Shown here: piece by piece, positions 4,260-20,000 of the stretch
How the letters are laid out: each line of letters opens with the position of its first letter
How positions within the stretch are numbered: the stretch's first letter is position 1
NCBI RefSeq assembly: GCF_004010195.1
Contig: NC_057718.1
Span: forward strand, 45,535,585 to 45,555,584
Length of the DNA: 20,000 nt
Source of the DNA: Chiloscyllium plagiosum
Lineage: Eukaryota
Reading direction: 5' to 3'
Notes under the pieces: generated by a model
The model's input: the letters and a program-made list of their open reading frames with translations, nothing else
Databases searched by the model: none
What the model was told of the DNA's origin: nothing
Made by a program: the position numbers and the translations under genes

Positions 4260-4463
4260 CAAGTCAAAACATGCGGCACTGGAAAAGAACAGCTGGTTAG
4301 GCAGCATCCGAGGAGCAGGAGAGCCAACTTTTCAATTTCATGAAGAAGAGCTTATGCTCAAAACGTCGACTCTCCTATTCCTCGGATGCTGCCTGACCAG
4401 CTATGCTTTTCCAGGGCCACACTTTTTGACTCATTTCCAGCATCTGCAGTCCTCACTTTTTCC
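4260..4463 (+). mobile_element. Fold-back non-autonomous insertion derived from a Penelope-like terminus, with a decayed hammerhead motif
   Basis: Inverted arms (~4262-4323 vs ~4370-4431) around catgaagaagagcttatgctcaaaacgtc. It ends in ccagcatctgcagtcctcacttt, the reverse complement of the ends at 4810 and 19472. tttcctgt occurs at both 4251-4258 and 4459-4466. Confidence 0.8.
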
Positions 4464-4809
4464 TGTTTAAGGTGAGAATTTCTTAAGTGCAAACTCCCTG
4501 TCTTCCTTTCCTCTATTTCTCTCTTCTGCTTTTAATTGTAATTCCTCGTCACTTGGTTCTAAATGAAGCTGCTTCATTTTCAACTGAATTTTAGCCATTA
4601 AGATTCCCATGGCATTTCCATCAAATTGAAATGCTGAGCTATTGCTGTAATTCTCTCCTTTCCTCACAGAAGGATGCAGCTCCAGCTTGTTTGCCAATTC
4701 CAGCAGCTTGGCCTTAACCACCTTTTATAAAACCCCCAAAATCATGTCTTCCACCCCCACAAAAAACTCTTGGTGACTGAGAGCCATTGCTATCCAAAGC
4801 ACTGTTTAA

Positions 4810-5012
4810 GGAGAAAGTGAGGACTGCAGATGCTGGAGATCAGAGCTGAAAATGTGTTGCTGGAAAAGCGCAGGTCAGGCAGCATCCAGGGAACAGGAGA
4901 ATCGACGTTTTGGGCATAAGCCCTTCTTCGGGCTTATGCCTGAAACGTCGATTCTCCTGTTCCCTGGATGCTGCCTGACCTGCTGCGCTTTTCCAGCAAC
5001 ACATTTTCAGCT
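4810..5012. mobile_element. Fold-back non-autonomous insertion derived from a Penelope-like terminus, 203 bp, with a 13-bp target-site duplication
   Basis: Perfect TSD aagcactgtttaa at 4797-4809 and 5013-5025. Near-perfect inverted arms 4844-4923 and 4930-5012 with a ttcttc loop. The first ~120 bp are nearly identical to 19472-19594. Confidence 0.9.
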
Positions 5013-8749: not shown

Positions 8750-11700
8750 CCATCCATCAAATGTGCTCACTAAAAATGTTTCTTTTATACAATATACAGC
8801 TAGGGAAGCAAGCTCCTTTATAATACTTCAGGACAAGGGCCTGGGATTATTTCCAATTAAAAAAGTTAAAAGATTGTGGTCTATATAAATAACAGTTTAT
8901 TCCCTGTTGACATATATTTAAAAATGATGTACAGCCATCATAAGGCTCAATGTTGGTTTTTCAATGGTTCAACATTTTTATTGACAGGGAATGGGGTCAG
9001 TTTCTTGACCAACAGGTCATCCTGCAGTAAAACAGCCTCCAGACCAATGTCACGGGCATCAACTTTGAATGGTCTCCCATAAATTAGGCAGAACTGTCAG
9101 CCCTACTTCCACATTTTCATACTTTGATACTCAAGTCCATTCAGATTTTCTTACATTTTTCAACAACTTTGTTCAAAAGGTGCAATGTCAGTGAAGAAGT
9201 TCAGAACAAATCTGCAATAAAAATTCACTCATGCCAACTTTTCAGTTTATCCTAGCCTGCACTTTTACTTCTGTGTGCTACTTGGCTTTGTCCCACCATA
9301 TGACCCAAGTAAGGTCACTTTGACTTTAGCAAATTCATTATAATCAAATTGGCTGATCAAAACGGTGCAAGTGCTCTTCCCTGGTTTAGCAAAACTGCAA
9401 CCAAATTGTCAATGTAAACAGTATTATTACCAAGTCTTTTGATCATTGATTAGCCATTGAAATGTGGCTGGTACATTTTTCATTCCAAACAAAAGGACTT
9501 TGCACTGATAACATTCATCCCACATTACAAGAATTAAAGAAATATCAGCTTTATCAGTTAATGGAATTGACATCCTTTTAACAATGGATTTGTTTGACAA
9601 ATGATGAATGTAAGATTTATTTAACACAGTCCACCAGTCTAGGACTGGATGCAAATCGGCGTTCACTACCATGTTAATTACCACAAAGTTAACAGAATTG
9701 TTGTAACTCATCCAGTTTCAGCATTATTTGACAGGTGACGTCCAGCTACTGTGACAGTTCAATGTCATTGTCCACAATTAACTTAGTTTCTTACCTCACT
9801 TGATCTACACTCCCTGGATGGAGTCTGTACAGGAACTGCTTTATAGGCAATATCACCCACATTAACATGATCAAAACAAAACTTTCCTGATCCGTTCCCA
9901 CAAAGATTTATGGATCAGTAATAGCCTTCCTAAATCACTTCAAATGTCTTCAAGATAAAACATGTTATCTAACCTTTTAAGCATTAGTGTGTTTTTTCCA
10001 AGCTGATTGTTGGAGGATAATTTTTCAATTGCTGATTCATTCTCCAACTACTTTGATTTCTAGACTTCACCTTTTACTCCAATACCATTAAATTCATTTT
10101 TTTTTTGTTGTCTATTGGCCCTACCATATCTTTTCAATGTGTTACCCTGAAATGCTGGTTCTCACTCCTGTCTGAAATACTCACACAATTCACATTCTTA
10201 AGCTTTTTTTTGATTTGATAAAAGGTCCAGTGAATCTTGCTTTTGAAATGGCTCCAAACAGACTAAAATAGGACCAAAAACACATTTCCTGAAAGAAAAT
10301 GTCAAACTTTAAACTTTTAAAATCTGCTCTACTTTTCATTGTTTGTTTAGAATCCTTCAAATGCTTCCCTCCAACTCTCAGGCTTTTGTCAGTTTCTCTC
10401 AAACTGATGTTGAAAGTGTTGTTGATTTGGTTTACAATTCAAGTGGCCTCTCACTTAACATTCATTTATCTGTTCAAAACAAAAACTAAAACTAAATCTG
10501 GAGGACTCATTAACAGTGTCCCTAATGGCAACAAACTAATTTCCTTATACTAATCGCTATGACAATCTTGGCTCTAATCAGTCTTCAAAGTTTGAAGACT
10601 CTTTCCAAAGCAAAGAGATTGTGGGTGAAAAGTGAAGATGTAAATGATTTTAGCCCCAAAGTAATAATCATTTCTTCCAACATAAAATTTGAGCCTCAGA
10701 TTGATTATGTATATAAAAAAGACAATATCTTGTTTCAAAGAAAAAACAACTATTCCACTACCACATTTGTAGCAATGGTGACAATGCAGATTGATAGAGT
10801 GGTCAAGGTGGCATATGGCAATCGTTCCTTCATCAGACAGGGTGTTGAGTGCAAGGGTTGGCAGGTCATGTTACAGTTGTATAAGACTTTGGGTCAGCCA
10901 CATTTGGAATACTGCATAGTTCTTGTCACCACATTACCAAAAGGATGTGGATGCTTTGGAGAGGGTGCAGAGGAGGTTCACCAGAAATGTTGCCTGGTAT
11001 AGAGGGCGCTAGCTATGAAGAGAGGTGGAGCAGATTAGGATTATTTTCATTAGAAAGACAGGTTGAAGGGGGACCTGATTGAGGTCTACAAAAATCATGA
11101 CAGGTCTGGACAGGGTGGATAGCAAGAAGCTTTTGCCCCAGAACGGGGGAGTCAATTACTAGGGGTCACAAGTTCAAGTGAGAGGGAGATACGCATGGAG
11201 AGTTCTTTATGCAGAGGGTGGCGAGTGGCTGGAACGCATTGCCAACACTGGTGGTAGAGACAGGCACGATAGCATCATTTAAGATGCATCTAGACAGATA
11301 CTTGAATGGGCAGGTAGCAGAGGGATACAGATCCTTAGAAATTAAGCAATAGATTTAGATAGAGTGCAGGCTTGGAGGTCCAAACGGCCGGTTCCTCTGC
11401 TGTAATTTTCTTTGTTCTAATTATCCTGAAAGTCATGCTTCAGGAATGTATACATCCATAAAATTGTACAAAAATACAATGACTCCCATTCCTGGTTTTA
11501 GGTACTGTCTCAGATCACTATCTTAAGCCTTTTCTAAACAGTTCTCCAAAAGTTTTGGTACCCTGTATTAGAGTTTAAAGTTGTAGGGTTAAGGGAAAGT
11601 TGGGAATTCTCCACTACCGACCACAAATGGCATGTCAAGGCAAGAGTAATTACACCTCTAAGTAATTAAAGCTAATAAAAATGTTTTAGCATTTTACCGT

Positions 11701-12720: not shown

Positions 12721-13114
12721 TCCATAATCAGTCATCACTGACTCTGAGCACTCCATAGGAAGTATTGCAGGAGCATGTGCAGTCGTCGTAATTTCAGATA
12801 GGAGGTGCATGGAGGTCCAAGCAGACTTGGAAAAAAAAAGGGGACGTGTTAAAAACCTGGAAAGACAATTCAAGTTCATTTTTTTTGGGATTAGGAGGTA
12901 GACTTCAAGAACTTATTTCTCCACGACAAAATCCGTCTCAAAAACCGATCGCTGTTCAGAGCAAAGTCCAGACCCTGAAATCTGAAATTTTAGAATCATA
13001 CTTTTCTCTTACCTGATGCAGGAATCAGGTCAATCTTTTATAAAGGGTAAATATAGAGAAACTCTGATATATTTATACAAATTCTATGAACGCAACGTAC
13101 TAATAGCCTCTGAA

Positions 13115-13202
13115 ACGCTTTTGCCTGAAATGTCGATTTGCCTGCTCCTCAGATGATGCCTGACATGCTGTGCTTTTCCAGCACCACTCTAATCTAAACT
13201 CT
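13115..13202 (+). mobile_element. Fragment of a Penelope-like terminal repeat
   Basis: gcttttgcctgaaatgtcgatttgcctgctcctcagatgatgcctgacatgctgtgcttttccagca aligns with 4932-4998. Confidence 0.7.
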
Positions 13203-14490: not shown

Positions 14491-14619
14491 TAGAAATGTT
14501 AGTCAGCACATATCCTTTAGACAACCAAAACATTACAATAACCTTACGGAATGTCTAAAATCACAGATCCAATCAAGCACATCAGTTGGGCTATTTTTGG
14601 AATTGTGTAAACAACACTG

Positions 14620-15117
14620 ATCTCCCTCCTATAGGAAGGATGTTATGAAGCTCGAAAGGGTTCAGAAAAGATTTACAATGATTTTCCCAGGGTTGGAGGA
14701 TTTCAGCGACAGCGAGACTGAATAGACTTGGGCTATTTTTCCTGAAGCATCGGAGGTGGAGGGGTGACCTTAGAGGTTTATAAAATCATGAGCACCATGG
14801 ATACAGTGAATAGACAAGGTCTTTTCCCTGGGATGGGGGAGTCCAGAATTAGAGGGCATACTTTAGGGTAAGCGGGGGGCAATTCAAAAGCAAATTAAAG
14901 GATGGTGCATGGAATGAGTTGCCAGAGGAAGTGGTGACGGCTGATACAATTACAACATTTAAAAAAGGCATCTAGATGGATATATGAATAGGAAAGGTTT
15001 AGAGGGATATGGGCTAAGTACTGGCAAATAGGACTAGGTTAAATTTAGGATATCTGGTAGGCATAGACAAGTTGGACCAAAAAGGTTCTGTTTGTGTTAT
15101 ACATCTCTTGGACTCTA
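14620..15117 (+). mobile_element. CR1/HER1-type LINE 3' fragment
   Basis: SPSYRKDVMKLERVQKRFT, gggggtgaccttagaggtttataaaatcatg, and tail ggcatagacaagttggacc. Same subfamily as 18792-19471, in the opposite orientation. Confidence 0.9.
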
Positions 15118-16928: not shown

Positions 16929-17039
16929 CTGTTTGACCAGGATTCTTGCCAGCAGCCTGACCGTCTCAGAGGGGTTCCAGTTCTGCCCAAATTTGCTCAT
17001 GGAAGAACATTCCAGTTTGTGCATTGGCCAATCAGCTTT
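16929..17039 (-). CDS. SMYD2: SMYD2 internal coding exon (equivalent to human exon 3; end of MYND finger and I-SET region), 111 nt, phase 0/0
   Basis: Minus-strand translation KADWPMHKLECSSMSKFGQNWNPSETVRLLARILVKQ matches vertebrate SMYD2 (human, from memory: KEDWPMHKLECSPMVVFGENWNPSETVRLTARILAKQ). Preceded by a (CTTT)n polypyrimidine tract ending ttcag and followed by donor CAG|gtgagg. Missed by the ORF track. Confidence 0.96.
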
Positions 17040-17844: not shown

Positions 17845-18015
17845 GGTGTGTGTGTGTGTTTGTGTGGGAAAGAGGAGGAGGAGGAGGTGTTCGATAAATA
17901 TGAAAATATTGAGGGGGAAAATCAGATGTAGTAGTAGTAGTAGTAATAGTAGTACAAGGGGGATTTTTAAATATTATTCCAATTGATTATTATTATATTT
18001 AAATATTATTCCAAT
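17845..18015. repeat. Compound simple-repeat cluster: (GT)n, (GAG)n, (GTA)n and an 18-bp direct repeat
   Basis: gtgtgtgtgtgtgtttgtgt (~17846-17865), gaggaggaggaggagg (~17872-17887), gtagtagtagtagtagtaatagtagta (~17927-17954), tttaaatattattccaat at 17966-17983 and 17998-18015. Confidence 0.85.
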
Positions 18016-18166: not shown

Positions 18167-18472
18167 TGGGTGGAACAGTGGTTAGTATTGTGCTGCTTAG
18201 CACCAGGGATCTGGGTTTGATTCCAGCATTGGGTGACTTTCTCCCTGCGTTGGCATGGGTTTCTGATGGGAGCTCCGGTTTCCTCCCACAGTCCAAAGAT
18301 GTACAGGTTAGGTGGATTAGCCATGCTAAGTTGCCTTGTAGTGTCCAGGGATGTGCATGGTAGGTGGATTAGCCATGGGAAATGTGGGGTTATGGGGATA
18401 GAGCAGGGATTTGGGTCTGGATGGGATGCATATGGAGGGTCCCTAGAGACCCAGTGGACAGAATGGGATTCA
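18167..18472 (+). mobile_element. Older, diverged HE1-type V-SINE
   Basis: Degenerate A box tggaacagtggttag, B box ggtttgattcc, ctccggtttcctcccacagtccaaagatgtacaggttagg, and an internal duplication taggtggattagccatg (18309-18325, 18361-18377). Confidence 0.85.
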
Positions 18473-18791: not shown

Positions 18792-19471
18792 AACAAACCC
18801 TTCCGTCCAACTCGTCCATGCCGACTAGATATTCCAACCTAATCTAGTCCCACCTGCCAGCACCCAGCCCAAATGCTCCAAACCCTTTCTACTCATATTG
18901 CAATATGTTAGCTGCCACCACTTCCTCTGGAAGCTCATTCCATATAAGCACCACCCTGTGTGTGAAAAAAGGAGTTGCCCCTTATGTCTCTTTATATCTT
19001 TCCCCTCTGACCCCAAACCAATGCCCTCTAGTTCTGAACTCACCCACCCCAGGGAAGAGATTTGTCTATTCATCTTATCCATGTCCCTCATGATTTTACA
19101 AGCCTGTATAAGGTCACCCCTCAGCCTCCAGGGAAAACAGCACCAGCCTATTCAACCTCTCCCTATAGCTCAAATCCTCCAACTCTAGAAACATCCTTGT
19201 AAACCTTTTCTGAACCCTTTCAAGTTTCATAACATCCTTCCAATAGGAAGGAGGCCAGAACTGCATGCAATAGCCTAACCAATGTCCTATATAACCGTAA
19301 CATGACCTCAACTCCTATACTCAATACTCTGACTAATTAAGGAAACCATACTAAACACCTCCTTCACTATCCTAGCTACCTGCAACTCCATTTTCAAAGA
19401 GCGAGGAATCTGCACTCCAAAGGTCCCTTTGTTCAGCAACACTCCCTACGACCTTACCATTAAGTGTATAA
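18792..19471 (-). mobile_element. CR1/HER1-type LINE 3' part, interrupted by the Penelope-like insertion
   Basis: Minus strand YCMQFWPPSYWKDVMKLERVQKRFTRMFLELEDLSYRERLNRLVLFSLE (track ORF 19114..19311). 3' tail cggcatggacgagttggacggaagggtttgtt at ~18792-18823. Confidence 0.93.
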
Positions 19472-20000
19472 GGAGAAAGTGAGGTCTGCAGATGCTAGAG
19501 ACCAGAGCTGAAAATGTGTTGCTGGAAAAGCGCAGCGTGTCAGGCAGCATCCAGGGAACAGGAGAATCGACGTTTCGGGCATAAGCCCTTCTTCAGGAAT
19601 GAGGGAAGTTTGTCAGGCAGGCTAAGATAAAAGGTAGGGTCCACACCGCCCACCAACGCAACCTCCACTCCTGGCACCTTCCCCTGCAACCGCAGGAGGT
19701 GCAAGACTTGCGCCCACACCTCCCCCCTCACCTCCCTCCAAGGCCCCAAAGGAAACTTCCATACCCGCCACAGATTCACCTGCACCTCCACACACATCAT
19801 CTATTGCATCCTCTGCACACGATGATGCCTCCTCTATATTGGGGAGACAGGCCAGCTACTTGCGGAGCGTTTCAGAGAACACCTCGGGGACACCCGGACC
19901 AACCAACCCAACCACCCCGTAGCTCAACATTTCAATTCCCCCTACCACTCCACCAAGGATATGCAGGTCTTTGGACTCCTCCACCGCCAGACCACAACAA
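19472..20000 (+). mobile_element. Penelope-like retroelement fragment: inverted 3' terminus (19472-~19638) followed by GIY-YIG endonuclease coding sequence (19640-20000, one premature stop)
   Basis: Frame from 19640: STPPTNATSTPGTFPCNRRRCKTCAHTSPLTSLQGPKGNFHTRHRFTCTSTHIIYCILCTR*CLLYIGETGQLLAERFREHLGDTRTNQPNHPVAQHFNSPYHSTKDMQVFGLLHRQTTT. This shows IIY..YIGET..RFREH (GIY-YIG) and an upstream C-x4-C-x2-C cluster. TGA at 19823-19825. Confidence 0.92.
19566..19600 (-). ncRNA. Minimal type I hammerhead ribozyme motif (Penelope-associated)
   Basis: Minus strand auuc-CUGAAGA-a-GGGC-uuau-GCCC-GAAA-CGUC-gauu: CUGANGA and GAAA boxes, 4-bp stem II, palindromic ACGU in place of stem III, and a GUC cleavage triplet (predicted cut between 19569 and 19568). 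Activity is not shown. Confidence 0.7.

Follow-up and report, generated by a model that had tools for sequence, protein, structure and literature searches.

An intact minimal hammerhead motif of a Penelope-like element lies in SMYD2 intron 2 of a shark and is likely inert for the host transcript

The hammerhead motif found in intron 2 of SMYD2 in Chiloscyllium plagiosum is very probably the hammerhead of a Penelope-like end repeat, brought there in a truncated inverted insertion and likely inert for the host transcript. It is a real, intact copy of an already known kind of Penelope-like hammerhead and most likely travels as a passenger in the host intron. The window, i.e. the whole stretch of 20,000 nucleotides analysed here (NC_057718.1, positions 45,535,585 to 45,555,584), had been described in a sequence-only reading as holding a ribozyme that could act on the host pre-mRNA.

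The motif occupies 19565..19600 of the minus strand, where every core base of a minimal hammerhead is present. It opens with AUUC (19600-19597), followed by the core segment C3-A9, CUGAAGA (19596-19590), an unpaired A (19589), a 4-bp stem II of GGGC (19588-19585) and GCCC (19580-19577) closed by the loop UUAU (19584-19581), the GAAA box (19576-19573) and C-G-U-C17 (19572-19569), with a predicted cut at 19569/19568. Stem I is formed by G19568-C19597 and A19567-U19598 and, across a U-U mismatch, by U19565-A19600 (2+1 bp). The core bases, 4-bp stem II, palindromic ACGU, interrupted stem I and cut position given by the sequence-only reading all agree with what we read on the minus strand. The sequence reads as a minimal type I hammerhead motif; in folding over five contexts stem II had a pair probability of 0.84-1.0 and stem I, the helix spanning the cut site, at most 0.09, and one subfamily has 4 bp in this helix.

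The minimal hammerheads described in the pseudo-LTRs (pLTRs) of metazoan Penelope-like elements (PLEs) by Cervera and De la Pena (2014, PMC4209133) are likewise of type I with a helix III reduced to the palindromic 15.2-16.2 pair, an unpaired base between 9 and 10.1, a G10.1-C11.1 pair and a short helix I. Here, the boxes CUGANGA, GAAA and UH come in type I order, helix II (GGGC/GCCC) has the G10.1-C11.1 pair with A19589 as the unpaired base before it, the palindromic 15.1-16.1 stretch permitting a dimer is present as ACGU, and the motif lies in a pLTR; among 12 long copies, 7 show it following closely on the RT/GIY-YIG frame. Stem II has 4 bp and stem I 2+1 bp in our motif, and a stem I of 2 bp is reported for D. 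virilis (PMC4209133). A strict hammerhead descriptor, proposed earlier as a check, gave a single match in the window, at this motif, and none in 300 shuffles. The other proposed check, an Rfam hammerhead model, did not recover it, as the 12 window matches at E<=5 include no hammerhead family. Genome-wide, intact cores with this spacing number 127,312 against 34 for a reversed-pattern control, and these counts together with the shuffles show that the motif is not a product of chance.

The same abundance makes the copy in SMYD2 an ordinary one, since the exact 28-mer of the motif occurs 33,157 times in the genome and the density of intact cores is one per 28 kb. Intactness is the usual state of young copies of this Penelope family. 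The family exceeds more than tenfold the highest number in the text of PMC4209133 (about 9,000, in Xenopus), and it resembles the elements described there in consisting mostly of single, truncated, dispersed copies with pairs on opposite strands; sharks are unnamed in the main text of that work, and its supplementary alignment may include them. Our searches of the openly accessible literature listed no work dealing with PLE hammerheads in sharks or with copies that begin at the motif. Retrozymes have been reported in one cartilaginous fish by a 2026 preprint (10.64898/2026.07.22.740005). In C. plagiosum, four motif matches exactly 663 bases apart at C20:58067062-58069084 form a retrozyme-like tandem array, an arrangement that could permit a dimer in cis.

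A lack of excess conservation in the core boxes across genomic copies had been named as a result that would speak against a ribozyme, but the cores are kept. Among the 92 of 181 sampled copies that retain the region, non-CpG variation above 20% occurs within the 28-nt motif only at N7 and two loop II bases, all of them free positions in a hammerhead (chance 0.003-0.011), and the variable places listed in RNA reads, which include 19582-19584 and 19592, agree with this genomic pattern. Two additional families of minimal hammerheads were identified in a sample of ~1.1 Mb, with 22 and 8 strict sites. Family 2 has a GGAGC/GCUCC stem II, an AGCU stem III (22 of 22 sites, AGCU having been part of the sorting rule) and a CAC/GUG or UAC/GUA stem I, while the further family retains the core with a long stem II and a GCA/UGC stem I. 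MAFFT did not bring the three families into register and their stems were compared from per-site tables. Common to all three are the core and its unpaired base, closure by a G-C pair, a stem III that is palindromic (AGCU or ACGU) and a paired stem I, which has 3 bp in the two further families, and the letters differ. Compensatory change in stem II was absent among the sampled copies of the window's own family. Retention of the core on differing stems in two further families makes it likely that selection for the fold took place in the elements and not at the SMYD2 locus; this comparison of sequences suggests that selection likely acted in active element lineages and would have maintained the fold for as long as those were active. 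Part of the region's conservation could come from promoter or protein-binding constraints. Among 50 family-2 sites examined, one had a GIY-YIG-like frame upstream and two had inverted RT fragments; family 2 also makes head-to-head pairs beginning just before the core.

The motif is carried by an inverted, 5'-truncated end piece (pseudo-LTR and tail) at 19471..19639 on the minus strand, delimited by BLAST against 19 other copies; over its first 120 nt it departs from the family majority at 5 positions, all outside the motif. The sequence-only reading was right on both counts, the minimal type I hammerhead and its place in an inverted Penelope-like terminus. On the plus strand, 19640..20000 is a 5'-truncated ORF piece encoding a C-X4-C-X2-C linker and, after it, the beginning of a GIY-YIG endonuclease (86% identity over 120 aa to a long copy with RVT_1 and GIY-YIG; Pfam GIY-YIG E 0.02, below the cut-off, for the piece itself). 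This piece has an in-frame stop and runs, at the right end of the window, into 2,737 unreadable bases (N). The element at this locus is a dead, truncated insertion. Elsewhere, RVT_1 and GIY-YIG were found in all 3 long frames scanned (RVT_1 passes the cut-off in 2, GIY-YIG is just under it in all), and the distance from frame end to hammerhead is about 159-179 nt in four clean long copies. RT followed by GIY-YIG in one frame, 5' truncation and an inverted end piece are the features of PLEs with a C-terminal endonuclease, and an inverted truncated piece on the 5' side is a described trait of Penelope-like elements (PMC8557442). The same source defines Neptune/Nematis by a C-X2-5-C-X2-C linker before the GIY-YIG motif, absent from Penelope/Poseidon. 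The linker in the window, CNRRRCKTC, fits this rule and unlike Penelope/Poseidon the shark family has it, so that the linker motif, taken by itself, points to an element of Neptune or Nematis type.

Head-to-tail tandem hammerhead units, as in non-LTR retrozymes, were absent on the readable side of the insertion, the other side being N. The element's own forward end is present in three similar loci, and if the 2,737 N hold it here, a long inverted repeat would form part of the SMYD2 transcript and, by pairing with the motif, would mask it. A full-length 5' end was not found among 12 long copies or 30 further loci, where homology stops in a repetitive stretch. The Penelope piece was inserted into a LINE-like repeat at ~19471, and reads from other copies continue across that point. 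LINE-like pieces at 18910-19308, 10863-10892 and 14617-14942 are presumably of CR1 type, and another dispersed repeat, which we take to be SINE-like, has five copies at 551-2582 and 18169-18377, four of them clustered within 2 kb. The window also holds further material of the same Penelope family. At 4803-5012, a head-to-head pair of end pieces forms a near-perfect hairpin (54-nt arms, 96%, and a 30-nt outer pair) in which both hammerhead cores are truncated or damaged, and which accounts for several weak Rfam miRNA matches; a second, older inverted arrangement lies at 4262-4464 with a damaged core at 4335-4370, and a single decayed end piece at 13112-13192 (+).

SMYD2 is encoded throughout by the minus strand. 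Downstream, the motif is followed first by exon 3, at 16929..17039, which matches residues 80-116 of the human protein between AG/GT borders (phmmer E 1.4e-15 to SMYD2 chains). Exon 2, with zf-MYND, lies ~8 kb and exon 1 (residues 9-58, E 5e-20) ~15 kb past the right window edge, and later exons extend to ~22 kb left of the window. With exon 2 outside the window on the right, intron 2 contains the motif in sense orientation, which bears out the earlier claim of a shared strand and of a position in the intron ahead of the window's exon. A pyrimidine run ending in AG at 19622-19639 (-), ~25 nt before the motif, resembles a 3' splice acceptor, is sense within intron 2 and is retained in most subfamilies of the element; no splice joint at it was listed in the RNA reads. 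Simple repeats (dinucleotide and trinucleotide runs) lie around 17860-17960 in the same intron.

The suggestion that the motif could cleave SMYD2 pre-mRNA through a second copy found no support: the readable gene has no intact same-family partner, a dimer is predicted to be unfavourable and sense cores are undepleted in 20 dynein genes. A search of 119.5 kb around the window found no second intact same-family core on the SMYD2 strand of the readable gene, though the 2,737 N could hide one. Same-family copies on that strand are damaged, and the one other strict core there is an AGCU core of family 2, ~24 kb downstream, ~4 kb left of the window and in a later intron. Minimal hammerheads in the literature are described as lacking activity as monomers and having little of it as dimers (PMC4209133); cleavage by dimers is also treated in a review (PMC6765202). 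In our predicted folding, which omits tertiary contacts and proteins, a two-core dimer reached -13.3 kcal/mol versus -16.4 kcal/mol for two monomers and is thus ~3 kcal/mol less stable. In active lineages, the hammerhead would cut only when two copies dimerise through their ACGU stretches or when the element's protein assists; the copy in SMYD2, with no partner nearby, would fold stem II only and then leave with the spliced intron.

Strand counts in 20 dynein heavy-chain genes (1 Mb) gave 21 sense versus 23 antisense intact cores (95% interval of the sense share 0.32-0.63), 30 sense versus 38 antisense when cores of all three families were pooled (p 0.40) and 98 sense versus 85 antisense for all end pieces; the core comparisons comprise 44 (68) sites, many in head-to-head pairs, with flanks assumed to lie within genes. 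These counts show no strong cost of sense cores; a mild depletion is compatible with them and the pooled 30:38 leans toward it. RNA reads came from one poly(A) single-cell run, of which ~2 in 100 were read and 1,086 aligned; only 30 of the 1,086 are at least 99% alike, so the reads report the whole family and not the SMYD2 copy. Read ends did not pile up at the cut site at ~500-fold depth, a weak negative given that poly(A) single-cell reads miss 5'-OH/cyclic-phosphate ends.

That the SMYD2-intron copy cuts the pre-mRNA to any meaningful extent, with a partner in cis or trans or with the element's protein, and thereby tunes SMYD2 is in our view very improbable. The core is fully intact on the sense strand of intron 2, but intactness is the common state of young copies. 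Partners exist in principle, as the family is abundant in RNA and a near-intact same-family copy, with A6 changed, lies ~27 kb downstream on the same strand, and a lizard element's hammerhead cuts once its protein is added (PMC11167929); against this stand the unfavourable predicted dimer, a stem I formed less than 10% of the time, the undepleted sense cores of the dynein genes and, weakly, the missing pile-up of read ends. Low-level cleavage of the SMYD2-intron copy would be compatible with the evidence. The ultraconserved intronic hammerheads of amniotes are single-locus, canonical and conserved across species. Our motif resembles them in being a hammerhead on the sense strand of a host intron, and differs in being a young repeat copy among ~127,000, with a minimal fold.

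The copies of the family also bear on which form of the element RNA was copied. An initiator-like TCATTCC at 19596..19602 (-) matches TCAKTY and YYANWYY (PMC4581360), and its A19600 is the commonest copy start of the family and the predicted transcription start of the element, with promoter activity presumed from the sequence. Starts 28-40 bases before the cut site, most often at the A of ATTC with which stem I begins, account for 66 of 181 sampled copies, a figure that missing references for old subfamilies may inflate, and 10 of 181 begin within 3 bases of the cut site. In genome-wide nested counts of the young family, the share of copies departing from the element is 6.5% at -29, 22.5% at -32, 27.3% at -33 (one base ahead of the initiator A) and 19.2% at -34, where a subfamily variant accounts for part of it; at -44 it is 1.8%. 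The 30 loci inspected from the -33 class were all true ends. The end piece in the window starts 39 bases further upstream than this peak and was thus made from a longer template.

A G precedes the initiator A in 67 of the first 100 cases listed, counted by eye, versus 38 of 100 for the control at -29 and 27 of 72 for that at -44 among the matches listed, also by eye (p 7e-5 and p 2e-4, respectively), and G remains in 15 of 24 loci after removal of five with a partner-supplied base and one duplicate. Departures at the cut site reach 0.90% (286/31,870) versus 0.61% and <=0.51% nearby, counting genome-wide only cases with a purine before the site. Inspection of 30 such cases gave 13 point changes and 17 real departures, one of them an internal deletion. 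A small real excess at the cut site (odds 1.5) is possible, and CpG mutability together with junction microhomology could produce it. The cut site does not qualify as a hot spot for copy starts, its share being at most about 1%.

For full-length L1 and SVA ends, an untemplated G has been explained as a copy of the cap (PMC3287187). Starts at stem I, the extra G and the ~1% at the cut site fit capped, uncut templates, and they suggest that copies were mostly made from uncut, likely capped RNA. On the simplest reading, reverse transcription would start in the tail and run off a capped, uncut 5' end that coincides with the first base of stem I; most short copies, with the exception of that in SMYD2, would have been reverse-transcribed from the uncut front end of the element RNA. 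We regard it as an evenly balanced question whether the element RNA starts at the hammerhead's first base, with the ribozyme beneath the cap, the short stubs being cDNA of a capped leader and the extra G a copied cap. If so, tens of thousands of stubs are a fossil record of a Penelope-type RT starting internally and running off a capped end, cut RNA is rarely used as template (about 1%), and the role left to the ribozyme may be, for example, removal of the cap-bearing 32 nt or trimming of read-through RNA. A broad peak, a missing DPE (+28 to +33 does not match the consensus DSWYVY) and the want of a full-length copy linking the proposed start to the ORF count against this model.

It is possible, though rather doubtful, that the pile-up of starts reflects an endonuclease preference for ATT and microhomology at head-to-head junctions instead of a capped 5' end. 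The lizard enzyme cuts at ATT within its own repeat, and the start peak extends over several bases (19-27% at three neighbouring positions). By eye, the G came from the inverted partner in 4 of 20 inspected cases and lay in the target duplication in 3, and G is somewhat high at both controls, yet well below its share ahead of the initiator A. The second ATT, immediately behind the cut site, shows no concentration of starts (0.9%), and six head-to-head junctions end in G from neither partner, three of them in a single G.

Templates of uncut RNA are also known from the green anole, where cleavage by the hammerhead of the Poseidon element PAc required the element's protein (Frangieh et al. 2024, PMC11167929). 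The shark family is like PAc in having the motif near the front of the element RNA, the tail ~100 nt downstream and, probably, uncut RNA as the main template, and in both no reads end at the cut site; the ORF of PAc starts inside the motif. The D. virilis Penelope has an internal promoter in its pLTR, with a TATA-less start and an initiator (Schostak et al. 2008, PMC2377424), as proposed here. Its hammerhead, in that account, follows an intron well downstream of the start, whereas in the shark family the proposed start coincides with the motif's first base.

The overlap with the likely start site raises an unlikely alternative, namely that the motif is hammerhead-shaped only, with catalysis no longer important even to the element, and was kept as a core promoter or protein-binding site. 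The near absence of copy starts at the cut site (about 1%), the insertion of the lizard element in vitro unaffected by core mutants (PMC11167929) and the success of Naiad elements without a hammerhead (PMC8557442) would all suit such a role. A DNA promoter, in contrast, does not explain why three families keep the core, closing pair, palindrome and stem I with different letters, and the mismatch with the DPE consensus argues against it as well.

The function of Penelope hammerheads has been called unclear (PMC8557442), and the more than 100,000 dated copies of this shark genome allow asking which RNA form was copied; the counts point mainly to uncut RNA whose 5' end lies at the first bases of the motif. 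With one intact core per 28 kb, most long genes of this species will contain one, and a single copy, such as that in SMYD2, matters little. As the strand counts show no bias, a vertebrate seems able to tolerate minimal hammerheads in its introns in very large numbers, and these are likely near-silent without a partner or helper.
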